A DNA stretch of 49,335 bases from Candidatus Yanofskybacteria bacterium RIFCSPLOWO2_01_FULL_49_17 (GTDB lineage: Bacteria > Patescibacteriota > Minisyncoccia > 2-02-FULL-40-12 > GWA2-44-9), in NCBI GenBank assembly GCA_001795695.1, contig MGKO01000008.1:1825-51159 (forward strand). The letters run 5' to 3'. Within the stretch, counting starts at the first letter, position 1. Each line of letters begins with the position of its first letter. This document shows, one piece after another, positions 4,239-48,984 of this stretch. The position numbers and the translations under genes were made by a program. The notes below the pieces were generated by a model, which saw only the letters and a program-made list of their open reading frames with translations, was not told the DNA's origin and did no database searches.

Positions 4239-4241
4239 TCC

Positions 4242-4418
4242 ATGGTACCAGCATTACCGCCGTTTGATTTCAGCCGATTCTTCAATCTGCAAGGGATATC
4301 GAGCGGAGACGTGACCCAGGTCGTCAAAGCCGTTTTGATACTGGTCTTGAACATCTTTCTGACCACTATCTCGGTGATCAGTCAGATCATCCAGGTAGTT
4401 CTCGGTTTGATAAAATAA
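4242..4418 (+). CDS. possible small (58 aa) membrane protein
   Basis: Hand-read ATG 4242 to TAA 4416-4418; no ORF this short appears in the supplied track. The C-terminal half is hydrophobic (AVLILVLNIFLTTISVISQIIQVVLGLI). It lies between the cohesin gene and the operon terminator and has no clear SD. Confidence 0.3.
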   Translation: MVPALPPFDFSRFFNLQGISSGDVTQVVKAVLILVLNIFLTTISVISQIIQVVLGLIK

Positions 4419-4475
4419 TTTTGCGACATATTGCAGGCCTGCCTGCCGCAGGCAGGGGAGTCGGGGACCCTAAAA

Positions 4476-4506
4476 TAACCCCTCCTAAAAGGAGGGGTTA
4501 TTTTTA
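4476..4506 (+). terminator. intrinsic terminator of the surface-protein operon
   Basis: TAACCCCTCC-TAAAA-GGAGGGGTTA (10-bp stem) followed by TTTTT. Confidence 0.7.
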
Positions 4507-4852
4507 TTATTCGGTATTCCTGGCCGGAGGTTTTCTTCTCCGATGAGGGAGAGAATTTTTTGAAAAATATTTTTTATTATTTTAATGCCTACGAGTCAAG
4601 AATCTTTAAAAAATTATTTTTTATTAACCTTATTATTGCCGGGCCAACCATTGCTATAGAATAGGTCGCATAACCTACAATGTGCGGCGTACTGTATATC
4701 CTAAAAACCAGCCCCCTTAATAAAAATGTGTCTCTGAATTATTTTATATTTAATTTATTTTTCCGTTTGTTTTGCTCTCTGTTCATCACACTTCCCCATT
4801 CCTGTTGGTATGCTAATATGTTTAAGAATTTAATTATTTAAATCCTTAAATC

Positions 4853-8472: not shown

Positions 8473-8508
8473 AAAACTAAACCACGGAGGACGTCGTCAG
8501 TTATTTTG

Positions 8509-21852: not shown

Positions 21853-22593
21853 CTATTTCCTAGATTTCTTTGTTCTAGCTTCTTTCTTAGCTGGCTTTTC
21901 AGTGATTTCTGGGACTTCAACTTCCGACACCACCTTGAACTGGTCTATCAATATTTCAGCTGCTTTCTTCAGGGCCGCTTCCGGTTCAATGGAGCCGTCT
22001 GTCTCAACTTCCATCGTTATTTTGTTGAAATCTATCCTTTGGCCGACCCGGACATCCTCGATCTTGAAATTGACAAGCTTGATGGGCGAGAATATCGCAT
22101 CCACGGCAATGACGCCGATGGCCAGCTTTTCCTTCTGCCGCTGTTCAACAGGCACGTAACCGACGCCTTTTTCAATGTCCAGTTCCATAGAGAACTCTGT
22201 TTTCTTCTCAGTGATGGTGGCGATGTGCTGGTCGGTATTGATGACCTCCACATCAGAAGTGGTCTTGATGTCGGCCGCCGTGACCTCGCGTTCACCCTTA
22301 ACGTCCAGAGTCAGCTTAACCGGACCGTCGGAGTAGAGTTTGCAGCGTATCTTCTTGATGTTAAGGATTATCTCTATCACATCCTCAAGCACGCCGGGCA
22401 TGCTGGAGAACTCATGGTCCACTCCTTTTATCTTGACCGAGGTGATGGCGGCTCCTTCCAGCGAGGAAAGCAATACGCGCCGAAGCGGATTGGCAATGGT
22501 CGCGCCATAGCCCGGCATCAGCGGCCCGATCTCAAAGACGGCCTTGTTCTCGCCCTTGCTCACCACTTTCACTTGTTCCGGTAACTGTATCAT
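21853..22593 (-). CDS. rpoA: DNA-directed RNA polymerase alpha subunit, N-terminal domain only (no alpha-CTD)
   Basis: 246 aa with NTD motifs (GYGATIANPLRRVLLSS, VTAADI, IAVDAIFSP). The protein ends in a Lys-rich tail EKPAKKEARTKKSRK right after the NTD. Confidence 0.9.
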   Translation of the reverse strand: MIQLPEQVKVVSKGENKAVFEIGPLMPGYGATIANPLRRVLLSSLEGAAITSVKIKGVDHEFSSMPGVLEDVIEIILNIKKIRCKLYSDGPVKLTLDVKGEREVTAADIKTTSDVEVINTDQHIATITEKKTEFSMELDIEKGVGYVPVEQRQKEKLAIGVIAVDAIFSPIKLVNFKIEDVRVGQRIDFNKITMEVETDGSIEPEAALKKAAEILIDQFKVVSEVEVPEITEKPAKKEARTKKSRK

Positions 22594-24625: not shown

Positions 24626-24847
24626 CTAGTTACGGTATACTATCCTTCCCCTTTTGCCGTCCGGAGACAGCTCTAGGGTTACCTTGTCGCCTATCATCAC
24701 CTTTATGTAGTTCATCCGCATCTTGCCGGCCAAATAGGCCAACACTTCACGGCCATCATCAAGCTGGACCTTGAATTTCGTGTCCGGTAGGGCCTCAATG
24801 ACGACCCCGTTCACCTTAACTTTTTGTAGGTTTGATTCGCTTACCAC
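24626..24847 (-). CDS. infA: translation initiation factor IF-1
   Basis: 73 aa with an S1-like fold (VNGVVIEALPDTKFKVQLDDGREVLAYLAGKMRMNYIKVMIGDKVTLELSPDGKRGRIVYR). GTG start. Confidence 0.9.
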   Translation of the reverse strand: MVSESNLQKVKVNGVVIEALPDTKFKVQLDDGREVLAYLAGKMRMNYIKVMIGDKVTLELSPDGKRGRIVYRN

Positions 24848-24984
24848 CTGGAAAAAATAAGCCGCCTGTGGGGGCGCTTTGATTTACGGGGGCCGCCACT
24901 TAATAATCATGGCTTGTCCCGTACATAACTTGCTTATGTAGCGGGATTCCTACTGTCTAGTATATTATACCTTTCAGCTCCTTA

Positions 24985-25013
24985 ATATTAGCAAACCTTG
25001 CAAACCTTGTCAA
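24985..25013 (-). promoter_or_regulatory. sigma70-like promoter of the infA r-protein operon (TTGACA-17-TAATAT)
   Basis: On the minus strand TTGACA lies at 25013-25008, then a 17-nt spacer, then TAATAT at 24990-24985. A second TATAAT lies at 24969-24964. Confidence 0.5.
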
Positions 25014-25045
25014 ATAAAAATGGCGGAGGATATTTCACCTCCGCC
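25011..25045 (-). terminator. intrinsic terminator of sRNA-like unit 4
   Basis: GGCGGAGG (25022-25029) / CCTCCGCC (25038-25045) with ATTTTTATTT downstream on the minus strand. CCATGG abuts the stem upstream. Confidence 0.55.
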
Positions 25046-25139
25046 CCATGGATTGCCTGATGTTGCAACAGCGCACTGGAGTGAACGCAGCTCGAGGTTA
25101 TCTTACTGCGCCTAGTGGCTATGGTATCATAAATTTTTA

Positions 25140-25256
25140 AAAAGTAAATAGCGGGGACTTTCGTCCCCGCTCCGTGGTGAAGGGAGGGACACCGGGATCG
25201 GCCCAAGGTTACCTAGCATCGATCTGGCGAACCGAGCAGAACCTGTCCGAGCCTCC
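25140..25256 (-). ncRNA. candidate ~115-nt small RNA (unit 3 of a four-unit array) with its own promoter and terminator
   Basis: The promoter at 25263-25291 predicts a start near 25256 (GGAGGCUCGG..). The terminator is GCGGGGAC-GAAA-GUCCCCGC (25170-25151) plus UAUUUACUUUUU. The 5' GGAGG..GACA can pair with UGUC.CCUCC. No ORF with an RBS and no match to a known RNA family by eye. Confidence 0.4.
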
Positions 25257-25262
25257 ATTTTT

Positions 25263-25291
25263 ATTATATACTATTTTAAAACTTTTGTAAA
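25263..25291 (-). promoter_or_regulatory. sigma70-like promoter (TTTACA-17-TATAAT) for sRNA-like unit 3
   Basis: On the minus strand TTTACA lies at 25291-25286, then a 17-nt spacer, then TATAAT at 25268-25263. Confidence 0.5.
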
Positions 25292-25319
25292 TAAAATGCC
25301 GGGTACTGGTGTACCCGGC
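25290..25319 (-). terminator. intrinsic terminator of sRNA-like unit 2
   Basis: GCCGGGTAC (25298-25306) / GTACCCGGC (25311-25319) with ATTTTATTT downstream on the minus strand. ACCACGG abuts the stem upstream. Confidence 0.55.
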
Positions 25320-25421
25320 CCGTGGTTCAAATCAACATAGGACAGACCAAAGAGATTCAGTGGAGCTTACGATGCTCGGCCCTTTTTGTTTCTGAAAAAT
25401 CCTTTCGTTCTGAGGTGAAAC

Positions 25422-25451
25422 GTCCGGAGCGGGGTGTGTCCTGCTCCGGAC
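25422..25451 (-). other. perfect 9-bp hairpin of sRNA-like unit 1 (weak U tract)
   Basis: GTCCGGAGC (25422-25430) / GCTCCGGAC (25443-25451) with a 12-nt loop. ACCACGG abuts the stem on the minus strand; the downstream GTTTCACC is only weakly U-rich. Confidence 0.4.
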
Positions 25452-25638
25452 CCGTGGTCAAGCGGGGTTTAGAATGTCGTGACGGTCCGCGTTACGATGG
25501 GACGCAGTGGACTAAACGAGACCCGGAGGCACCGCATGCTGTTGACTAGTCAGCCAACAATGTGATGGTCTCGATGAAATACCCTTACCATACGTAACGA
25601 AGAGATGCTAGCATATCATTGACTTTATGTCAAGCATG

Positions 25639-27357
25639 CTATCTACTGACGGTAATATGGACTTTTTCGGAATTTTTGGGGACACTGCGGACCCAGACCG
25701 GCGAGAGGAGGACATTGGCCGAGGTGATGTTGGGCACGGATTTCAAATACGACTCTATCTGGGCCTGCTTTTTCCCTAACAGGTCAGACAGTATCTTCTT
25801 TTCGTCCACCTTGGCGAAGCCGGGGCCAGACACGGTCACGGTCATCCGCAGAATGTTGGAAACAGGGTCAAAAGAGATATCGCTGTAATTGACGGTCAAT
25901 TTCTCGGCCACGACATCAAGGTTATATTTATTGGCAACGTGGCCGGAGATGAGTTGCTTGAGATCCTCTTCTTTGAAACCGGCTGTCTTGAGCGTCCCGT
26001 CAAGCGACATCGTGAAAGTATCGGCCGCGTCATCGGGCAGGGCCGTTGATTCGGGCGGGGCGATGGATATGTCCGCCTCATTTATAATCTTGAGGCCGGC
26101 CGTCTGGACTTTCGTCTCATCGTTTATGAGCTGTCTAAGCTGGACCGTGAGCAGGTCCTTTGCTTTTTCAAAGTCGTCGGCTGTGACCACAGTCGCCTTG
26201 CCGCTGGTCCCGCCCCGCATGGCTGATTTGGAAGCGCCGGTAATGTTCTGATATTTGGCCGTATTTCCCTGCTCTTTAAAAGCGGGAATGGTAAAATCGC
26301 CGGCTGGAACGTTATAGTCCGACCCTATCTTGTCGGCGATGACCTGGACCTCCGTAGTGCCGGGCGTGGAGGTGTTTTTTGCCGCTGGCACAGTCACGGT
26401 CAATAAGCTGCGGAAAATGTGGCCGTCAGACGACTGGAAGCGGGTGGTGGCGATGAGCGGCTGGGCGGCAGAAGTTTTGTTGTAGAGAGTGATGGACCCG
26501 CGGGCTTTTTGAGCGACATCCTTGGAACCGGTGGCGTTGAAGGTCTGGGAGACCGATTTTTGGATGACGAAGGTCTGGCCGGAAAGTTTCAGGCCGGCCG
26601 TGTCCACTGAAGCAACGGATTCCGAGGCGGTAGCCGTTATTTTGAAATTAAGGTCAGTAACAGCCGGTTTAATCAGCACCTGGGCGCTGCCGGTGGTTAA
26701 ATAGATAAGGGCGCCGGCCAAGACCACTCCCCCTCCGCCGAACGTGTAGATCAGTCGGCGCTTGCGCGGCATTACAGCTCCCCACCTTCTGATGCTTAAT
26801 TTGCCGACTTTCGATTTCCATTCGGCTACGGGCTCGGCAGTTTCCGACCAAACCTGTTCAATCCCTTCGTCGTCATTCTCTGCGGTCTCGTATTGACGGT
26901 TGACCGGAACAGAAAATCCTTTTTCTTTTACGGCCGAAACCTTTATATTGTATTGCTCTCCTTGTTCAATCAGTTCTGATGGAACTTGACCGTAAAAATT
27001 TTCTATCTCATTGACCATATTGACCGGAGCGGAACGGATAGCCGTTTTTTTAGCAGAGCGGGCAGTCCGCTCACCTAATTTTTGCTTGACAGAAGTTTGG
27101 CGAGCCAATAAAACGTCAAAACCGTGCTTGTCGGCCAATATGTTCACTTCCGGATTAGATGAAAGAAATGAAACGGTCTTATTGACCTCATCGGCCGCTT
27201 CGCGCAAAACGCTGAAATGCTCCTCTCTTTGAAAGGCCTTGGAGCGCTTGGGTAGCACGAAGATGACTTCGCCGGCCGGCGTCGTCTTGAATATATTGAG
27301 TATCTCGGCGAACGAGTCGTCCTTCAAAACATTGATAATCTTTGTAGAGGAAGACAT
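25639..27357 (-). CDS. hypothetical single-pass membrane protein (cytoplasmic N-domain, large extracytoplasmic C-domain)
   Basis: 572-aa ORF with a TM LIYTFGGGGVVLAGALIYLTTG near residue 210. No family recognised with confidence. Confidence 0.7.
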   Translation of the reverse strand: MSSSTKIINVLKDDSFAEILNIFKTTPAGEVIFVLPKRSKAFQREEHFSVLREAADEVNKTVSFLSSNPEVNILADKHGFDVLLARQTSVKQKLGERTARSAKKTAIRSAPVNMVNEIENFYGQVPSELIEQGEQYNIKVSAVKEKGFSVPVNRQYETAENDDEGIEQVWSETAEPVAEWKSKVGKLSIRRWGAVMPRKRRLIYTFGGGGVVLAGALIYLTTGSAQVLIKPAVTDLNFKITATASESVASVDTAGLKLSGQTFVIQKSVSQTFNATGSKDVAQKARGSITLYNKTSAAQPLIATTRFQSSDGHIFRSLLTVTVPAAKNTSTPGTTEVQVIADKIGSDYNVPAGDFTIPAFKEQGNTAKYQNITGASKSAMRGGTSGKATVVTADDFEKAKDLLTVQLRQLINDETKVQTAGLKIINEADISIAPPESTALPDDAADTFTMSLDGTLKTAGFKEEDLKQLISGHVANKYNLDVVAEKLTVNYSDISFDPVSNILRMTVTVSGPGFAKVDEKKILSDLLGKKQAQIESYLKSVPNITSANVLLSPVWVRSVPKNSEKVHITVSR

Positions 27358-27439: not shown

Positions 27440-28420
27440 CTACATAATATTGTCTAACTGGGCAAGCGCTTGTTCAGATGTTTTAGTCCGCATCAACTCA
27501 TCTCTAGATTCTTTGGCGCCCGGCCAGCCCGTAATATAAACCTTGAAAAACTTTTTCATAGTATCATAGTTTCGTAGCGAAGCGGAGCCCGCCTCTGGAG
27601 GGTTTCCCCAAAGATTAATAAAGTTTGATATGTGATGCTTTAATAATGTTAATCTCTCGTTGCGATTGTCCCCGCCAGAGGCGGGTCCGCCTCTGGCGGA
27701 AAAGAACCACGGGTTATTAAAAATCGCGCGGCCGACCATGATGCCATCCAGGCCATAATTCTTAGCTTTTAGGACACCGTCCTGATAATCACTGATGTCG
27801 CCGTTGCCGATGATAATGGTGCCTGATTCATGGGCAAGCTTGGAGAGCTCTCCGGCTAACTCCCAATGAGCCGGAACTTTGGACATTTCCCTCATGGTGC
27901 GCAGATGGATGGTCAGGGCATTGATCTTTGAACCAAGCAACTTTGCAATCCAAGACACATCGATCTTATCGCCCCCAAGACGAGTTTTAACGGATACAGG
28001 CAAACCGTTTGCCCCTCTCTTTGTCTCCGCGATTACCTCTGCCGCCAGTTCCGGCGTCTTGCAAAGCGCTATTCCCGCTCCCTGTTTCAATACTTTCCTG
28101 TCAGGACAGCCCATATTGATGTCTATGCCGTCAAAACCCAAGTCGGCGATAAGTTTAGCGCATTCATAAAAATATCTCGGCACCGAACCGAATATTTGCG
28201 CGACAATAGGCCGTTCGTTCTCGCCAAACTTAAAATGCGGCAATAGTTTCGGCCGCCCTTTTTCCGAACATAATCCGGCCGCCGATACGAATTCCGTATA
28301 AAAAACATCGGGTTTCCCCGTTTCGCAAATTATCTGTCTGAACGTCATGTCGGTCACGTCCGCCATCGGCGCCAGCACAAAAAACGGTTTCTCTAATTGT
28401 CCCCAAAAATTAAAATTCAT
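27440..28420 (-). CDS. tRNA-dihydrouridine synthase
   Basis: FVLAPMADVTDMTFRQI, DGIDINMGCP, SVKTRLG and TIHLRT motifs of the Dus TIM barrel. Confidence 0.85.
   Translation of the reverse strand: MNFNFWGQLEKPFFVLAPMADVTDMTFRQIICETGKPDVFYTEFVSAAGLCSEKGRPKLLPHFKFGENERPIVAQIFGSVPRYFYECAKLIADLGFDGIDINMGCPDRKVLKQGAGIALCKTPELAAEVIAETKRGANGLPVSVKTRLGGDKIDVSWIAKLLGSKINALTIHLRTMREMSKVPAHWELAGELSKLAHESGTIIIGNGDISDYQDGVLKAKNYGLDGIMVGRAIFNNPWFFSARGGPASGGDNRNERLTLLKHHISNFINLWGNPPEAGSASLRNYDTMKKFFKVYITGWPGAKESRDELMRTKTSEQALAQLDNIM
27672..27699. repeat. 28-nt palindrome CCGCCAGAGGCG-GGTC-CGCCTCTGGCGG inside the dus CDS
   Basis: Read directly. It encodes ARGGPASGG. A partial copy GCCCGCCTCTGGAGG lies near 27588-27602. 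Confidence 0.85.
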
Positions 28421-30114
28421 TAGTTAACAACTGCACGGATGCGGCGGTTGCCGCCGGAGACGCTCTCTTCTTTGGTGATGGTGATATGACCGACCTGGCC
28501 GGTGCGGGAAACATGCGGGCCGCCGCAAAGCTCACGGGAGAAATAAGCACCTGATTCACCTATTGAATAAACTTTTACGCGTGGCGGGTATTTTAATTTA
28601 AAGAAAGCAGAAGCGCCGGAATCAAGGGCAACCTGCAGGTCCATTTCTTCGCAGATAACCGGCAAATCCTTAGCAACAATGTCATTAGCAATGTTCTCGG
28701 CTTTCTTTAATTCTTCCAGTGTAACCTTCCGCGGAAAAGTGAAATCAAACCGCAATCGCTCGGCCATGATATCCGACCCGGCCTGCGGCAATTTCTGGCC
28801 CAGTACCCTTTCTAAGGCGGCTACGATAATATGAGTAGCCGTATGCAAACGGGTCTTTTTCCAAAGCTCTTCTTTGTTGGCCGCAGTCAAGTCGCCCTCC
28901 TTCATCCCATGCCCGCCGAACTTTTTTTCTACACCGGCTCGTGATATCTCCTGATGACGTTTGCGTTCCTCTTCAAAACCATTACGAGTTAAGCTTGAAG
29001 CTTTAGACCCGCCTACTTCCTGTATCACATCAAACGGCAGACCGAAGCTTTCATAGAGCTTGAAAGCTGAAGCGTTGTCCACCGAGCCCATCTTTTCCAA
29101 TTCTTTCAGACCATTCTTGAAGGTCTTTTGGAATTTTTCATTTTCGACGGCAAAAATAGATTTTATTTTAGATATATCCAGCTCGGGATAATACTGGCTG
29201 TAAAGCTCAACAATTTTCGCGAAAATATCGTTCATGGCTTCAATCTCTATCCCGTTCAGATGGCACTGGACGATGATGCGGCGAATAAGCCGGCGCAGGA
29301 CATAACCCTTATCTTTGTTTGAAGGAGTGACTCCATCAGAAATGATAAAAGCGGCCGCCCGGGCGTGGTCGGCGATTATTCTATGAACTTTTTTGGAAAT
29401 ATTGTCCTGCGGCAACATTTGGATGAGCGGCTCAAATAGATCAGTACCAAAAACATTCTCCTTTTTCTGGACGGCCATCGCCAGACGCTCCAGGCCCATG
29501 CCGGTATCCACGCCTGGCGATTCTAGGGCTTCCAACCTCCCATCCGGATGCTTATAACATTGATTGAAAACCAGATTCCAGACCTCAATACCGTTCACAT
29601 ATATCTCCGTGGTCGGTCCGCAAGGGCCTTCATTACCAGTCGGGCCCCAGAAATTATCTGCTCGGCCGAATTTTTTAATTACAATTTCAGGCGCGATCTC
29701 TCGCCATATCTTTTCAGATTCTTCGTCAGCGGGGATATCTCCCTCTCCGCCAAATATAGAAACATGGTCAATTTTTAAGCCCATCTCTTTAATTATGAAC
29801 TCGTGAGCGTATTGAGTAGCTTCTCTCTTCCAATAACCATTGAATGAGAAATTACCGAGCATTTCAAAAAAGGTCAGGTGCGACTCGTCGCCGACCTCAT
29901 CAATATCAGAGGTGCGCATGCATTTCTGGATGGAAGCGACATTTGCGGCCGGAGCAGACGACGGGTCGGTATAGTATTGCTTAAATTGCTGCATGCCGGC
30001 CGTGGTAAAGAGCACGGACGGGTCGGAGGGCAATAACGAAGATGACGCCACCCACTTGTGGCCTTTTGACCCCATGAACTTCCTGAATTTTTCTCGTATC
30101 TCCTGATGAGTCAT
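28420..30114 (-). CDS. alaS: alanine--tRNA ligase, compact form (no C-Ala domain)
   Basis: 564 aa with FTTAGMQQFK and GVDTGMGLERL in the catalytic core. Editing-domain motifs HTATHII and CGGPHV are present, and the protein ends right after them. Confidence 0.9.
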   Translation of the reverse strand: MTHQEIREKFRKFMGSKGHKWVASSSLLPSDPSVLFTTAGMQQFKQYYTDPSSAPAANVASIQKCMRTSDIDEVGDESHLTFFEMLGNFSFNGYWKREATQYAHEFIIKEMGLKIDHVSIFGGEGDIPADEESEKIWREIAPEIVIKKFGRADNFWGPTGNEGPCGPTTEIYVNGIEVWNLVFNQCYKHPDGRLEALESPGVDTGMGLERLAMAVQKKENVFGTDLFEPLIQMLPQDNISKKVHRIIADHARAAAFIISDGVTPSNKDKGYVLRRLIRRIIVQCHLNGIEIEAMNDIFAKIVELYSQYYPELDISKIKSIFAVENEKFQKTFKNGLKELEKMGSVDNASAFKLYESFGLPFDVIQEVGGSKASSLTRNGFEEERKRHQEISRAGVEKKFGGHGMKEGDLTAANKEELWKKTRLHTATHIIVAALERVLGQKLPQAGSDIMAERLRFDFTFPRKVTLEELKKAENIANDIVAKDLPVICEEMDLQVALDSGASAFFKLKYPPRVKVYSIGESGAYFSRELCGGPHVSRTGQVGHITITKEESVSGGNRRIRAVVN

Positions 30115-37812: not shown

Positions 37813-39345
37813 TTATCTGGCGTATTCCAAGGCGCGGGTCTCGCGAATGACGTTCACTTTTATCTCGCCCGGGTATTTCATTTCTTCCTCAATCTTGCGA
37901 GCGATGTCTTTGGCTAGTTTCATGGCTGCCAGGTCGTCCACTTGAGTCGGGGTGACGAAGACGCGCAGTTCCCGGCCGGCCTGAATGGCGTAAGATTTCT
38001 CCACGCCCTCAAACGAGCCGGCGATGCGCTCCAGATCGCCAAGACGCTTGAGGTATATCTCAATCGTGTCTCGGCGGGCGCCGGGACGGGCGCCGGAAAT
38101 GGCATCGGCGGCCTGGACGATACGAGCTTCTAAGATTGAGTATGGATACTCGTCATGATGGGCTTCCATGGCCTGAATGACCTTGGGGTCCATATTGAAC
38201 TTCTGCAATATCTTGCGGCCTATCTCTACGTGCGTACCTTGGACCTCATGGTCCACCGCTTTGCCCAGATCATGGAAAAGAGCGCCCTTTTTGGCCACTA
38301 TAACGTCAGCGCCCAACTCGGCGGCCAGCATGCCGGCGATATGGGTCATCTCCACCGAATGCATCAGTACGTTCTGCCCATAGCTGGTGCGGAATGCCAA
38401 ACGGCCTAACAGATAGGTCAGTTTCGGATCAACCGCGCCGATGCCGGTCTCAAACAAAGCCGCCTCTCCCGCTTCGCGTATCTTGTCGTTGATCTCGTTC
38501 TTGGCCTTCTCAACCATTTCCTCTATCTTGCCGGGATGGATGCGGCCGTCGGCGATGAGCTTCTCAATGGCAAGCTTCGCCACTTGGCGGCGGACTGGGT
38601 CATAACCGGAGACGATAAGCGCTTCCGGCGTGTCGTCAATGATGATATCCACCCCCGTCAGACGCTCAATGGTCTTGATGTTGCGGCCTTCTTTACCGAT
38701 TATCTTGCCCTTGACCTCGTCGGACGGCAGATTGACGACCGTGGTCATCGTATCAGAGATATGAGAACCGGCGTAACGCTGGATGGCAAGCGTGACCAGC
38801 TCGCGGGCTTTTTTATCCAATTCTTCCTTGCTTTCCAGTTCCAGTTTGCGCGTTTTTTGATAAAGCTCTTCCTTGGCCTCTTCCTCTATTTTTCTGACCA
38901 GTTCGGTCTTGGCCACCTCGCGGTCCAATCCGGCCACGCGCTCAAGCTCAGCAATCTGATGAGACAACGTCTCCTGGACTCGCTCTTTTAAAACCGACAC
39001 TTCTTGGGTTTTATGCTTAAGCGATTCTTTTTCGGTATTGAGCTCCTTATCTTTCTTTTCCAGCTCGTTTTCTTTCTTGGTCAGCAGATTCTCAATGCGC
39101 GAAAGCTGGGCCATCCGGTCCTTTTCTTCCTTCTTGGATTCCTCCAATGCTTCGAGGGACTTATTCTTGGCCTCAAGGAGAATGTCCTGGGCCTTGTTCT
39201 TGGCATCATTGATGATGCCTTGAGCTTTACTTTCCGCTTGAGTGGCCCGCAAGGCCGCCAAAACTTGCCGAATTATGTAACCGGCTGCCAGACCGAAGAC
39301 CAACGCCAAAACTTCCACCACGCGGGTAGGGATTCCGAATATCAT
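37813..39345 (-). CDS. rny: ribonuclease Y
   Basis: N-terminal TM, coiled coil, KH domain (GKIIGKEGRNIKTIE) and HD domain (HSVEMTHIAGMLA..LFHDLGKA). Confidence 0.9.
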   Translation of the reverse strand: MIFGIPTRVVEVLALVFGLAAGYIIRQVLAALRATQAESKAQGIINDAKNKAQDILLEAKNKSLEALEESKKEEKDRMAQLSRIENLLTKKENELEKKDKELNTEKESLKHKTQEVSVLKERVQETLSHQIAELERVAGLDREVAKTELVRKIEEEAKEELYQKTRKLELESKEELDKKARELVTLAIQRYAGSHISDTMTTVVNLPSDEVKGKIIGKEGRNIKTIERLTGVDIIIDDTPEALIVSGYDPVRRQVAKLAIEKLIADGRIHPGKIEEMVEKAKNEINDKIREAGEAALFETGIGAVDPKLTYLLGRLAFRTSYGQNVLMHSVEMTHIAGMLAAELGADVIVAKKGALFHDLGKAVDHEVQGTHVEIGRKILQKFNMDPKVIQAMEAHHDEYPYSILEARIVQAADAISGARPGARRDTIEIYLKRLGDLERIAGSFEGVEKSYAIQAGRELRVFVTPTQVDDLAAMKLAKDIARKIEEEMKYPGEIKVNVIRETRALEYAR

Positions 39346-39416
39346 AGGATTTAAAAGTTAAAAGTGTCATTGAAGATACTATACCCAAATAATCCTTGTT
39401 GTGCAAGTATTAACAA

Positions 39417-39450
39417 ATGACGCCCCGAGCGGGGACGCTCGGGGCGTCAT
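39417..39450 (-). terminator. 15-bp hairpin downstream of the 125-aa orphan gene
   Basis: ATGACGCCCCGAGCG-GGGA-CGCTCGGGGCGTCAT; a partial third copy GCTCGGGGCG follows. Confidence 0.45.
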
Positions 39451-39472
39451 TGCTCGGGGCGGTTATTGGAAG

Positions 39473-39955: not shown

Positions 39956-41500
39956 ATGAGACCGATTGTACTCACAATTTTGGATGGTTGGGGATATTCA
40001 AACCAAAAAGTAGGCAATGCCATCGCGACCGCCGGTACTCCTAATATTGACGATATCGCCCACAATTTCCCGTCAATGCTCCTACAAGCATCGGGTACGG
40101 CTGTCGGAATGAGCCAAGGCGAGGCGGGCAACAGCGAGGTCGGCCATTTGACCATCAGCGCCGGCCGGATAGTTTTTCAATATTTGAGCCGTATCAACAA
40201 AGCCATTGAGAATGGGGAGTTTTTCAATAACCAAACGCTTAAAGAAGTAGCGGCGCATATCCAAAAAAACAATTCTGTTTTTCATATTGCAGGCCTTCTA
40301 ACCTCCGGCGCGGTCCACGCCCACTATTCTCACATTATTGCCCTCGTAAAATTCGCTAAAGACAATGTCATCCCGTATCGTCTTCATCTTTTTCTTGATG
40401 GTCGGGATTCCGGTCTAAAAGAAGGCGCCGAGCTACTCAAAAAACTTTCCGCGGACCTAGGTGACCTGTCCTCATTGGCCTCCGTCATCGGACGCGACTT
40501 CGCAATGGACAGGAGCAATAACTGGAAACTGACCGAATCGGCGTATAATCTGCTGGTCAACGGCACAGGCAACAGCTCATCGGACGTTTTTGCGACGCTC
40601 AACGATTATTACAAACGAAACATCACCGATGCCGACATACCGGCAACGGTCATAAATTCATCCCCCATCAGACCAGGCGATGCGATTGTATTTTTTAATT
40701 TCCGGGAGGATTCAATGCGCCAGCTGGTCCGCGTCTTTACCGAGCCGGGCTTTGATATCTTCCTGCCGAAAGTTCCCGATAATCTCTACACCGCCGGCAT
40801 GACAAAGTACACAGAGTCAAAGGAATTGCACGCCATCATTCCCCCGCCGGAGATCAAAAATTGCCTGGCCGAAGTGCTGGCCGATAACGGCAAAAAACAT
40901 CTCCATATCGCCGAAACCGAGAAGTACGCCCACGTCACCTTCTTTTTTAACGGATTGCACAACAAGCCATTTGACGGCGAGACGGATATTTTTGTGGAGT
41001 CGCTGGAAGATCCGCTCCAAAATCCAGAAATGAAGGCGGCCGCGATAGCTGACAAGGTTTGCATCGAGCTGGACCGCGACGGCTACGATCTTTATGTCAT
41101 TAACTTCGCTAATCCTGACATTTTGGCCCATTTGGGCGTATTGGACGCAGCGGTCAAGGGGGTGCGGGCGGTGGACGCAGCCGTCGGTAAATTGAAAAAC
41201 AAGATATTAGAAAAGAACGGGGTGATGCTGATAACCGCCGACCATGGCAACGCGGAATCAATGATATATAAAGGCACCGGAGAAAAAGAAACACGGCACG
41301 ATGACAATCCTGTGCCGTTTTATCTGGTCGCTTCGGAGTACGCTCACGCTATCTCCCAAGAAAAGTTGGAGCAATCCCGCGCCTCCGCCGCGGGATTGCT
41401 CGCAGATGTCGCGCCCACCGTGCTGGCGCTGATGGGCCTGGTCCAGCCGGCCGAGATGACCGGTCAGAGCTTGCTTCAAGAATTAGCGGCTAACTCTTGA
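39956..41500 (+). CDS. gpmI: 2,3-bisphosphoglycerate-independent phosphoglycerate mutase
   Basis: RPIVLTILDGWGYS, GNSEVGH and ITADHGNAE motifs; 514 aa. Confidence 0.9.
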   Translation: MRPIVLTILDGWGYSNQKVGNAIATAGTPNIDDIAHNFPSMLLQASGTAVGMSQGEAGNSEVGHLTISAGRIVFQYLSRINKAIENGEFFNNQTLKEVAAHIQKNNSVFHIAGLLTSGAVHAHYSHIIALVKFAKDNVIPYRLHLFLDGRDSGLKEGAELLKKLSADLGDLSSLASVIGRDFAMDRSNNWKLTESAYNLLVNGTGNSSSDVFATLNDYYKRNITDADIPATVINSSPIRPGDAIVFFNFREDSMRQLVRVFTEPGFDIFLPKVPDNLYTAGMTKYTESKELHAIIPPPEIKNCLAEVLADNGKKHLHIAETEKYAHVTFFFNGLHNKPFDGETDIFVESLEDPLQNPEMKAAAIADKVCIELDRDGYDLYVINFANPDILAHLGVLDAAVKGVRAVDAAVGKLKNKILEKNGVMLITADHGNAESMIYKGTGEKETRHDDNPVPFYLVASEYAHAISQEKLEQSRASAAGLLADVAPTVLALMGLVQPAEMTGQSLLQELAANS

Positions 41501-44507: not shown

Positions 44508-45833
44508 CTACAGATTCTTCTCTATTTCGGCGGCCAGGCGCTGGACGGAGTTGGCGTAATTGACGCAAGCCGAGCTGGTGCTATTGGCACTGCCGCAATA
44601 ATAACGCTTGGAAGCGGCTATCTCGCCGGCCCTGGTCTGGCTGGAGGCGCCATCCCGGGCAAGCTTAGAGGCGGCGGCCACGAAAGCATCTTCCATGTTC
44701 CAGGGATTGGCCGGCCGACGGCCGGTTATGCGCGAGACCTCATCTCGGTATCCCATCCAGGTGGACGGTATGAATTGGGCGGCGCCCATGGCGCCGCCCC
44801 AGCCCTGGCCGCAGGATATGGGGGTCTGGAACGGGTCTTTGCTTAATTCCGCGGTAATGCTCAAGAACAAAGGCAGGTCCCTGGTCGGATGGATGCCTTT
44901 GGTGTATATCTGGCCGTTGGTGACGCGGCGCGTAGCGCCGCTGGTCATGTTCACGATATAGCATTTACCGACATTGGCGCCCAGGGCGCTTTCTTGCTCA
45001 AGCTCGGCCAAAAGGAACGCCGGCCTGATGCCCGCTCCGATGGCGGCCAGTTGTCCGTATTTGACGGCCTCCTCGGCGGAGATGCCGTACTGCAAAAGAT
45101 ACGAGATCTGGGCTCGGATGGCCTCAATGTCCCTCTGATTTTTTTTGACCAGCTCTTGGTATCTTGATTCTTGACCTCTAGTGTCTTTGAGCAATCTGTC
45201 TTTTTTGGCCTTTATCTGGTCAGCGGACCTTTTCTCTATGGTCGTCAGAGTCTGCTGTCTGGCCAGTTCCGTCTTGCGGTCCTCCAGGTCTTGTTTTTTC
45301 TGCTCAAGGTCTGTCTTGAACTCGGTCAGATTATTGATGGCGACTTTAAGTTCATCCTGAATGGTCTTGACGCTGTTCAATTCATTGAAAAAATCCGACA
45401 AGGTGTCGTTCTTTATCAAAATACTGGTCAAACTCTCCTGGTCGTTCTGGTAGATAATGCGCAGATACTGGCCCAACGACTCCTGACCTTTGCCTATCTT
45501 GCGTTCGGCCTCGGCTATCTTCGCTTGGGTGTCGTTTATCTGAAGATTGGTGTTGCTGATGGACAGGGCCAAACTCCTCAATTCCAGGTTTATCTGGTTT
45601 ATCTGGGCGGTTAAGTTGCTTATCTCGCCCTGCAAGGTCTGGGCCTGGCCATGATAACTGTTTATCTGCTGCTGATATTGGTCAATCTGGCGTTGCAACT
45701 CCTGAATTTGGGCGGTTCGTTCAGAAATCTCACTCGCCGTATCGGCAATAGCTCGCGTTATTGGCACAGAAAAAGAACCAGCCAACAATGCCGATATGAT
45801 AATAATCCATAAGAATTTACGGGACCTGCTCAC
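44508..45833 (-). CDS. coiled-coil protein with C-terminal lytic murein transglycosylase-like domain
   Basis: 441 aa with a signal/anchor and ~230 aa of heptad-rich coiled coil. The C-terminal GWGGAMGAAQFIPSTWMGY matches the MltB/SLT-2 type signature. Confidence 0.7.
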   Translation of the reverse strand: MSRSRKFLWIIIISALLAGSFSVPITRAIADTASEISERTAQIQELQRQIDQYQQQINSYHGQAQTLQGEISNLTAQINQINLELRSLALSISNTNLQINDTQAKIAEAERKIGKGQESLGQYLRIIYQNDQESLTSILIKNDTLSDFFNELNSVKTIQDELKVAINNLTEFKTDLEQKKQDLEDRKTELARQQTLTTIEKRSADQIKAKKDRLLKDTRGQESRYQELVKKNQRDIEAIRAQISYLLQYGISAEEAVKYGQLAAIGAGIRPAFLLAELEQESALGANVGKCYIVNMTSGATRRVTNGQIYTKGIHPTRDLPLFLSITAELSKDPFQTPISCGQGWGGAMGAAQFIPSTWMGYRDEVSRITGRRPANPWNMEDAFVAAASKLARDGASSQTRAGEIAASKRYYCGSANSTSSACVNYANSVQRLAAEIEKNL

Positions 45834-48000: not shown

Positions 48001-48984
48001 TCAGAGAGATTTTTTGAATTCCTCAATAGACGGCGTTGATATCGGATCGACACCGGCTTTTTCGGCCAGTGCTAATGCTGTCCAGTGCGCTAAAATAACA
48101 GACGAAACCACAGCCAACAAGGGTGCCCCTTGTACAAGGGGCACCCTTGTAACCGAAATGCCCTTTTGGTTGTAAAGTTCTGATATTTTATCTATTCCCT
48201 TAGCCAAACGCTCATCTCCATCATCTAATATTAAACAACGGAAACTAGTTAATAATTGCTTTGAATCCAAAAAGCCAGCCATTTCGTTATGATTCAGTTC
48301 GGGGAATCGATTAAAGAACGCGGGGACTTTCGCCGTTTCGTTCAGGATGACCTTCCAAGCGTAACCTAGCTCCTTTTTACTTTCTGGCGCGTATATCAAA
48401 GGAATGCCACCGGAAAGGTGCTCGGCCAGCTCTTGGCCCCTGCTTTCCAGTTTTGCGGCATCTATACCGGCACAGGCGGCCATTTCGCCGCCTTCAGCTC
48501 CAACCAATGCCATAAGGGCGACAAGGTCATAGCCCACAGCCAGACGTGACGGGATGTCCCCGCCCGGAATGATAATGTGCGGAAGCTGATTTTCCTCCGC
48601 CATTTTTATCAGCTCTCCGCCCGATGCCACCACGGCCAGGGTGTAGTCCTTGGAAACGGCCTCTCTGGCCGCGGATACGGTTTCACCGGTGTTCCCGGAA
48701 TACGAATTGGCGATTACCAATGCATCTCTTAAAACTCCTTCGCCAAGGTCAGGCAGTCCGTAATCAGAATGAATATGAATATTTTTCCTTGGCCAGTGCA
48801 TTTTTAGAATATCCGGCGCTAGTCGGGAGCCGCCCATGCCAGCAATGACAATCCTTTTAAAACCAGAAGAGAACAGATGGCCTACAAAAAGTCCTCGGGG
48901 CTTGGGCCTGATGTGCTCGCCCGACATTTTGGGTTGCCAGGAGAATTGCTTGGGCAGATCGAGGATAAGTTCGCGGTAAGACAT
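48001..48984 (-). CDS. SIS-domain bifunctional phosphoglucose/phosphomannose isomerase-type protein
   Basis: 327 aa with IAGMGGS and ANSYSGNTGET SIS motifs and two SIS halves. Confidence 0.8.
   Translation of the reverse strand: MSYRELILDLPKQFSWQPKMSGEHIRPKPRGLFVGHLFSSGFKRIVIAGMGGSRLAPDILKMHWPRKNIHIHSDYGLPDLGEGVLRDALVIANSYSGNTGETVSAAREAVSKDYTLAVVASGGELIKMAEENQLPHIIIPGGDIPSRLAVGYDLVALMALVGAEGGEMAACAGIDAAKLESRGQELAEHLSGGIPLIYAPESKKELGYAWKVILNETAKVPAFFNRFPELNHNEMAGFLDSKQLLTSFRCLILDDGDERLAKGIDKISELYNQKGISVTRVPLVQGAPLLAVVSSVILAHWTALALAEKAGVDPISTPSIEEFKKSL

Follow-up and report, generated by a model that had tools for sequence, protein, structure and literature searches.

Why does a streamlined bacterial genome keep several hundred nucleotides of non-coding DNA, carrying four G+C-rich hairpins that share a flanking motif, directly ahead of an operon for ribosomal proteins? 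The question arises in Candidatus Yanofskybacteria bacterium RIFCSPLOWO2_01_FULL_49_17, a member of the Candidate Phyla Radiation (CPR), of which we analysed 49,335 nt from the start of a 148-kb metagenomic scaffold (the window). Here a minus-strand array of about 630 nt separates a gene for a 572-aa protein (25639-27357) from infA (24626-24847), which opens the operon infA-rpmJ-rpsM-rpsK-rpsD-rpoA-rplQ. The window has a G+C content of 49%, a coding share of 90% and a median intergenic gap of 46 nt; at 791 nt, the spacer between the 572-aa gene and infA is its second-largest gap, behind the tRNA cluster. We find that the combination of motif and hairpin recurs in this spacer beyond chance, and we tentatively read the array as a lineage-specific cluster of two or three short terminated non-coding RNAs, in which an exposed ACCACGG beside the terminator may act as a seed or as a handle for a protein or ribonuclease (RNase).

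An earlier note on this DNA, made from its letters alone, had described four perfect hairpins with an ACCACGG-like motif at their feet and two promoters among them, and all of its coordinates for hairpins, motifs and promoters were reproduced when we re-examined the region (Table 1). In the direction of transcription the units follow one another as D, C, B and A, with ACCACGG ahead of the first three hairpins and CCATGG ahead of the last, and the motif-to-motif spacings of 126, 148 and 132 nt came out as described. With hairpin B taken to include its A-U closing pair, the hexamer CCAYGG sits at offset 0 from the stem in four of four units, in line with the 0-1 nt given before. The U-rich runs noted after hairpins A, B and C are there too, and a simple scan calls these three as intrinsic terminators with T7-T8 in the next 10 nt. 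Hairpin D is followed by GUUUCACCUC and is not called by that scan; lacking a U-tract, it probably does not terminate transcription, and an internal structure or a processing site is more likely. The four hairpins are accompanied by only two promoters within the array, named P_D and P_B after the units they precede, with unit A lacking a recognisable -35 and unit C lacking any promoter. P_D begins 10 nt past the stop codon of the 572-aa gene, which is the position of the infA promoter in a relative, L049.

To assess the recurrence of motif and hairpin, we looked for hairpins of 7 bp or more with CCAYGG at a distance of 0-2 nt, both in the window and in related loci; the 572-aa gene served to collect 48 genome loci and 8 metagenome contigs. 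The window holds four such cases, every one in the array and all within 440 nt, whereas 582 kb of related loci gave a single weak, chance-like case with G-U pairs inside a coding region, and a further 10 kb of the same scaffold gave none. The array is also the only cluster of at least two co-oriented canonical terminators within 250 nt in the window and 54 related loci. As had been remarked before, the other terminators of the window, which are A/T-flanked bidirectional stems, lack the motif. We regard it as confirmed that the recurrence is real and not due to chance. ACCACGG by itself occurs 13 times on the two strands of the window against 3.8 expected from dinucleotide shuffles, of which 0 of 100 reached 13; the 10 copies outside the array lie mostly in coding sequence, and codon usage may explain the excess.

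Coding potential and known RNA families do not explain the array. Its open reading frames (ORFs) reach at most 75 aa, the five longest on both strands have no Pfam match, and gene callers placed no gene in the region in six independent assemblies, in agreement with the earlier note, which saw no credible ORF here. Plus-strand ORFs that start at a GTG or ATG inside each heptamer were judged artefacts of how ORFs are defined, because a Shine-Dalgarno sequence or promoter is absent. A comparison with Rfam bore out the previous by-eye impression as well, with no family in the array and no match to tmRNA, RNase P, SRP, 6S, 5S, T-box, riboswitches, ribozymes or ribosomal-protein leaders. At the gathering score, the whole window yields only four tRNAs (36.6-37.1 kb); at E<=10, the best match in 24800-25800 is a 24-nt hairpin match of 20 bits against a cutoff of 64.5 bits. 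A tRNA-like NCCA end was considered for unit B, where the 3' strand of the closing helix stops 4 nt before ACCA; the tRNA or tmRNA reading was dropped, as ARAGORN finds nothing in the array.

Table 1. Features of the array in the order of transcription, with positions in the window. P, promoter; T, terminator; MFE, minimum free energy of the predicted fold.
Feature	Position	Strand	Details
Promoter P_D	25605..25633	-	TTGACA-17-TAGCAT with TG ahead of the -10; typical clade form TTGACA-17-TG-n-TANNAT
Unit D body	25459..25598	-	about 140 nt; predicted long-range helix CGUUACG/CGUAACG around two hairpins; MFE -63.6 kcal/mol, z = -2.1
Heptamer ACCACGG, unit D	25452..25458	-	flank CCCCGCUUG, like the unit B flank; repeat 81% over 16 nt
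Hairpin D	25422..25451	-	GUCCGGAGC / GCUCCGGAC; 9 bp, 12-nt loop, no U-tract
Unit C body	25327..25421	-	own promoter absent; probably the 3' portion of the transcript from P_D
Heptamer ACCACGG, unit C	25320..25326	-	
Intrinsic terminator T_C	25288..25319	-	GCCGGGUAC-ACCA-GUACCCGGC, then AUUUUAUUUA; hairpin C 25298-25319, 9 bp, ACCA loop; U-tract overlaps -35 of P_B
Promoter P_B	25263..25291	-	TTTACA-17-TATAAT, 11/12 consensus positions
Unit B, best delimited putative RNA	25140..25256	-	about 115 nt; T_B at 25150-25171 plus U-tail; hairpin B 9 bp including A-U closing pair, GAAA loop; MFE -47.6 kcal/mol, z = -2.1
Heptamer ACCACGG, unit B	25172..25178	-	
Unit A body	25053..25139	-	only a -10-like TATGAT (25131-25126), no -35; partly complementary to units B, C and D
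Variant heptamer UCCAUGG, unit A	25046..25052	-	CCATGG at 25046-25051; partly paired in the predicted fold
Intrinsic terminator T_A	25012..25045	-	GGCGGAGG-UGAAAUAU-CCUCCGCC, then AUUUUUAUUU; hairpin A 25022-25045, 8 bp, loop 8; U-tract overlaps -35 of the infA promoter
infA-operon promoter	24985..25013	-	TTGACA-17-TAATAT with TG ahead of the -10; downstream edge of the array; orthologous to the promoter of relatives

What the units have in common is concentrated at their 3' ends. The heptamer is the most conserved element: B, C and D agree at 7/7 of its positions, whereas the stem arms agree at 4-6 of 9. The earlier description of the stems as unrelated in sequence does not fully hold, since all match the pattern GNCGGGNRC and module B shares 71% identity with module C over 48 nt; the 81% match between modules B and D reads CCNCNCUUSACCACGG. 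Stem positions differ at three to five of the nine pairs, every difference being compensated, and in a loop-trimmed alignment 97% of cells are paired with double changes in six of nine pairs; the score for stem pairing and covariation was reached by none of 500 shuffles, although this covariation among four stems is partly circular because each was chosen as a hairpin. The bodies of the units show neither significant pairwise similarity nor a significant common motif. Dissimilar bodies, compensated stems and a heptamer identical in three units are what a functional single-stranded site would be expected to leave behind, and the predicted folds agree: in B, C and D, folded as separate RNAs, the heptamer is unpaired with a probability of 0.76-0.87 (0.87 in unit B), at the 90th-95th percentile of the 7-mers of each RNA. 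In the predicted MFE structure of unit B, 5' GGAGG..GGACA pairs with UGUCC..CCUCC to close the body and leaves CUUCACCACGG single-stranded between the body helix and T_B, much as the earlier note had drawn it.

Under the reading that we tentatively favour, a transcript of about 300 nt would run from P_D to T_C with hairpin D inside it, a second of about 115 nt would run from P_B to T_B, and unit A would give an RNA ending at T_A by read-through or from a weak promoter. The four separate units proposed earlier are not supported by this count, as the architecture gives about two promoter-driven transcripts plus a unit A without a clear promoter. If the RNAs are made, and made independently of one another, they would share only the 3' module, that is, the exposed ACCACGG (UCCAUGG in A) followed by a G+C-rich, perfectly paired hairpin of variable sequence, and we infer that this exposed heptamer and the neighbouring hairpin are the functional determinant. 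In trans, the heptamer might serve as a short seed that pairs with RNAs containing CCGUGGU, or an RNA-binding protein or nuclease might take hold of it; RNase Y is encoded in the window (37813-39345). The compactness of the genome favours this reading, as the 791-nt gap is retained and the sequence is 100% identical in 11 contigs.

Clusters of sibling trans-acting small RNAs (sRNAs), such as LhrC1-5 in Listeria, Qrr1-5 in Vibrio, PrrF1/2, OmrA/B and the csRNAs of Streptococcus, are the closest point of reference. The array resembles them in holding several short co-oriented units within one intergenic region, in having, for some of the units, promoters and intrinsic terminators of their own (here promoters for only two of four, B and D, and terminators for A, B and C), and in conserving a short single-stranded motif and a terminator while the remainder has diverged. 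The common motif of the array is ACCACGG in three units and UCCAUGG in one, always at offset 0, and the predicted folds leave it accessible in B, C and D. Known siblings, however, are recognisably homologous along much of their length and conserved across species, whereas the array bodies have no detectable similarity and the array is present in one clonal lineage only; its motif, moreover, abuts the terminator stem. The sibling-sRNA idea of the earlier note thus keeps part of its ground, namely the absence of an ORF, Rfam family or tRNA, the co-oriented promoters and terminators and the heptamer predicted to be accessible, and finds no support where it concerned four units, conservation and targets. 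It stays the most natural reading, if unproven, and the array plausibly belongs to this kind, in a phylum from which we know of no established sRNA.

Several observations weigh against it. Within the array, hairpin D has no U-tract, units C and A have no clear promoters, and the heptamer is less exposed in unit A (probability of being unpaired 0.45) and in the long D-C transcript; the folding z-scores, at -1.8 to -3.2, are modest and reflect the terminators to a large extent, and the circularity of the stem covariation given above belongs here too. The array is also missing from L049, whose 572-aa gene is 89% identical at the amino acid level, and from 53 other related loci. Beyond the clade, we searched viral and metagenome collections with a degenerate pattern of the module (ACCACGG, partly complementary arms, then RTTT), which gave more than 120 metagenome and 4 viral matches. 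About 20 had real hairpins, and these lie on unrelated, mostly G+C-rich contigs with no second module and no shared flanks. We ruled the metagenome matches out as a module family, taking them for chance terminators; ACCACGG beside a terminator evidently arises by chance in unrelated organisms.

The search for targets adds to this side of the balance, as no RNA of the window pairs with the heptamer region better than shuffled seeds do. RNAduplex runs against 47 translation-initiation regions and against genome-wide tiles (49 kb of genome) gave nothing above the shuffled background. Pairing of unit D (CGCUU-G-ACCAC) with the GUG start region of infA was considered and set aside as unexceptional, the infA start region ranking only among the top 14-20% of windows. 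An 'anti-start-codon' role (CCRUGG) fell as well, with no start codon of the window standing in a CCRUGG context.

Two CCGUGGU sites to which attention had been drawn, in the rplI 3' untranslated region (UTR) and inside dus, do exist, and such occurrences are expected by chance. The first, on the minus strand, reads CCUCCGUGGU (8481-8487 on the plus strand), stands 21-27 nt past the stop codon with the rplI terminator about 10 nt further on, and is complementary to 9 nt of unit B (ACCACGGAG), a match that may be due to chance. In dus (27440-28420, minus strand), a perfect 12-bp G+C palindrome, CCGCCAGAGGCG-ggtc-CGCCTCTGGCGG, occupies 27672-27699, with an ACCACGG (27706-27712) 6 nt from it. The palindrome replaces a variable loop, ARGGPASGG standing where relatives have DASVDVS (a 2-aa insertion), and is followed by a second insertion of 8 aa (PPEAGSAS) that is also palindromic. 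Other long perfect palindromes of the window lie at 39416-39451, 41369-41401, 44777-44799 and 48117-48150, some of them inside ORFs.

If the heptamer is a protein-binding site and not a seed, known RNA partners offer a partial precedent. FinO/ProQ-type and Hfq-type chaperones recognise the 3' ends of sRNAs, and a downstream hairpin guides cleavage by RNase Y. The array modules likewise combine a terminator hairpin, a single-stranded 5' flank and a U-tail as one unit with a free stem sequence; to our knowledge, neither these chaperones nor RNase Y need a fixed heptamer, and RNase Y is the only one of them seen within the window. A bolder version of this thought, in which this Patescibacteria lineage has an RNA-binding protein or nuclease dedicated to reading ACCACGG plus a hairpin, whatever its sequence, as a modular 3' handle, strikes us as a distinctly long shot. 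Were it true, unrelated RNA bodies would plug into one pathway of stabilisation, processing or delivery, and the module would be a tag of sequence plus shape of a kind not known for bacterial sRNAs, possibly tied to control of the infA/ribosomal-protein operon, in whose leader the CCAYG core recurs.

How the array came to be where it is can be approached through its relatives. The gene order dus, 572-aa gene, infA is syntenic in 48 genome loci of Yanofskybacteria, and the 572-aa gene, whose homologues are weakly baseplate-J-like, is kept across Parcubacteria. An exact-protein look-up with S13 added 9 contigs, all clonal, and the 11 identical copies of the array come from several samples; the array is therefore real but clonal, and confined to one lineage. 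The earlier note had named a lack of conservation of the heptamer-plus-hairpin arrangement as a result that would speak against its reading, and such a lack is what we found, the array being absent from every relative that we examined. Relatives usually have a spacer of 100-250 nt with the infA promoter almost directly after the stop codon of the 572-aa gene, and those with long spacers contain no analogous arrays with other motifs.

The spacer itself is a restless place. L049 (1975-2470) carries a tandem duplication of about 240 bp that comprises the infA promoter, the leader and the first two-thirds or so of the infA coding sequence, in copies that differ by about 15%, so the spacer is prone to segmental duplication. 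Three relatives at 60-63% identity have 2-3 extra genes between the 572-aa gene and infA (L051:7800-10789, L054:3954-6374 and L055:5659-9823), a sigma-70-like factor and two unknowns in two of these loci, two unknowns and a ResIII-type helicase in the third. Taken together, the duplication and the extra genes mark the spacer as a hot spot of insertion and rearrangement.

This history opens the possibility that local duplication and rearrangement produced the array as a neutral side effect, by copying and scrambling terminator-promoter junctions and parts of the infA promoter and leader, and that the heptamer is shared by descent and has no function. That a duplication of about 240 bp occurred in L049 at this very spot and that three relatives received extra genes there speak for it, as do the resemblance of modules B and C (71%) and of B and D (81%) and several local alignments: the stretch of T_C tail, P_B and 5' end of B aligns with that of T_A tail, infA promoter and 5' leader end (p = 0.017), there is a weak alignment of unit B with unit A (p = 0.037), and unit A (25012-25139) is partly complementary to B, C and D (25140-25638; p = 0.01-0.02), all of these p-values being uncorrected for 10 tests each. 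With the L049 duplication, the alignments suggest local duplication or rearrangement of the promoter and leader region; the U-tracts and promoters involved, however, converge anyway. Nor does a neutral origin sit well with bodies that have no significant common motif, with a leader profile that detects none of the units, or with three identical heptamers where body similarity has been erased, which is unlikely without selection; by our own estimate, at 44-67% identity of the stem arms a 7-mer would stay intact in about 0.3-6% of cases per pair. A streamlined genome would furthermore be expected to delete 600 nt of junk. All told, we think a neutral origin unlikely, if well worth keeping in mind. 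The complementarity of unit A, which includes an imperfect inverted repeat, about 85 nt long, with the 5' half of D, could mean that A pairs with the other RNAs, or could have been left by an inversion or duplication.

The element directly downstream of the array offers a further comparison. The 5' leader of infA (24850-24985, minus strand) is a conserved structured element in Yanofskybacteria, without a match in Rfam and with a hairpin CCAUGAUUAUUAAGUGG at 24912-24896. Its motif CCRYGAUUNNUAAGYGG has 27 instances in 26 of 54 related loci and one in the window, and forms a 4-bp stem with a conserved 9-nt loop, an A-U pair being replaced by G-C in three sequences. An outer helix encloses this stem, varies with compensation (ACGGG/CCCGU, GAGCGG/CCGCUC, GGCGG/CCGCC, AGAGGUGG/CCACCUCU) and is followed by a CCAC...GUGG hairpin and then a U-run. 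This layout looks like a 1:2 / 2:3 / 3:4 transcription attenuator, and the element is perhaps an autoregulatory leader for the infA/ribosomal-protein operon.

Array and leader have a CCAYG core in common (CCAYGAUUNYUAAGUGG in the leader), and in the leader CCAC/GUGG switch elements precede a U-run; the CCAY of the leader, however, is the 5' half of a covarying 4-bp stem, whereas that of the array has no GUGG partner. A leader profile built from 28 sequences (nhmmer --max) recovered the true leader at E = 1e-20 and detected no array unit, with only weak matches over P_D (25637-25605, E = 13, promoter only) and in unit A (25129-25096, E = 68). As the pairwise alignments are only marginal too, we rejected the idea that the array is a duplicated infA leader.

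Leader and promoters nonetheless bear on another account of the array, in which it is a cis-acting stack of terminators, at once the 3' UTR of the 572-aa gene and a far-upstream leader of infA, that insulates or meters read-through from P_D and P_B into the infA-rplQ operon, with ACCACGG as a pause site or the binding site of a termination or antitermination factor that works on the hairpins jointly. P_D lies 10-11 nt past the stop codon, at the position of the infA promoter of L049, so transcripts from P_D would originally have fed infA. T_C and T_A each have a U-tract that merges into the -35 of the promoter that follows, and a terminator-into-promoter junction of this kind stands ahead of infA in L055 as well; the true leader downstream is, moreover, itself attenuator-like and built on CCAY/GUGG elements. 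It is harder to see why one lineage would need such a stack when no relative does, most having the promoter directly after the stop codon, and what three strong serial terminators would leave to regulate. The units do not conserve an alternative fold of antiterminator type, and the failure of the leader profile to match them counts here too. We consider a cis-acting stack improbable on this evidence, though a serious candidate.

Could the hairpins instead act as DNA? Palindromes with a fixed flank might be recombination or transposition sites (attC-like, REP/RAYT-like or MITE-like), with the units as mobile cassettes. The hallmark of attC sites and REP families is a conserved short flank next to palindromes that vary in sequence, and the array shares with them, and with BIMEs, a short fixed motif by paired variable palindromes in a tandem, intergenic setting; that the locus is an insertion hot spot and that CCRYGG is a degenerate palindrome point the same way. 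REPs, however, occur as many dispersed copies in alternating orientation, and attC sites have paired inverse cores and an adjacent integrase. Neither 59 kb of this genome nor 582 kb of related loci contain a further copy of the array module, its motif stands on one side of the palindrome only, with no inverse-core partner across the hairpins, and there is no intI in the window. Pfam scans of the larger ORFs and the gene tables of L053 and L190 revealed no integrase, transposase, RAYT or Nop-domain gene in the 49-kb window, and the adjoining 10 kb has no integrase, transposase or Nop-domain gene. End-to-end inverted repeats are weak and imperfect (20-23 nt, 70-74% complementary), no target-site duplication was seen, and the U-tracts and promoters fit transcription signals better. 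We judge an element that works at the level of DNA very unlikely. Foreign origin was likewise discarded, as blastn of the array against phages and plasmids gave chance matches only (at most 46 nt), the array has no compositional anomaly and mobile-element genes are missing; readings as a DGR hairpin or a group IIC intron target were ruled out on anatomy.

Stem-loop arrays with a CCA box are also known from CPR bacteria. In TIGR arrays, variable but consistently palindromic inter-unit sequences are combined with a short conserved CCA box, each unit being a pair of 8-12-nt spacers that box C (CCA) and box D (UG) flank (PMC12045711). A CPR host, tandem units, variable palindromes and a short CCA-containing box beside them would all suit guide RNAs of the TIGR-Tas type, or of another snoRNA-like system, processed from a precursor. 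There is, however, no Nop-domain (Tas) gene in the window or the adjoining 10 kb, and the units, at 126-148 nt, are 3-4 times too long and lack dual short spacers, a box D partner and any box D/box C pairing pattern; their individual promoters and terminators point to separate transcripts. Such guide RNAs seem to us exceedingly improbable here.

A few features of the window outside the array and the spacer may be recorded. Its third-largest gap (4239-4852, 614 nt) is very A+T-rich, contains a bidirectional terminator at 4473-4503 and has no Rfam match. RpoA (21853-22593) is only 246 aa long (243-246 aa in relatives), with no Pfam match to the C-terminal domain, and the alanyl-tRNA synthetase (alaS, 28420-30114) has only 564 aa (551-632 aa in relatives). 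A 17-nt exact match, AATAAAAATGGCGGAGG, between the foot of terminator A (25014-25030) and a phosphoglucose-isomerase-like coding sequence (48593-48609), on opposite strands, is probably a coincidence.

We know of no regulatory small RNA established in CPR bacteria, and a literature search turned up none. Because the array is confined to one clonal population, its general significance is limited. The genomes of these bacteria are tiny, with little room for non-coding DNA, and the place of the array just ahead of the infA/ribosomal-protein operon hints at a link to the control of translation. If the reading as a cluster of short RNAs is true, terminated small transcripts with a common exposed heptamer would offer a first point of entry to RNA-based regulation in the Candidate Phyla Radiation.

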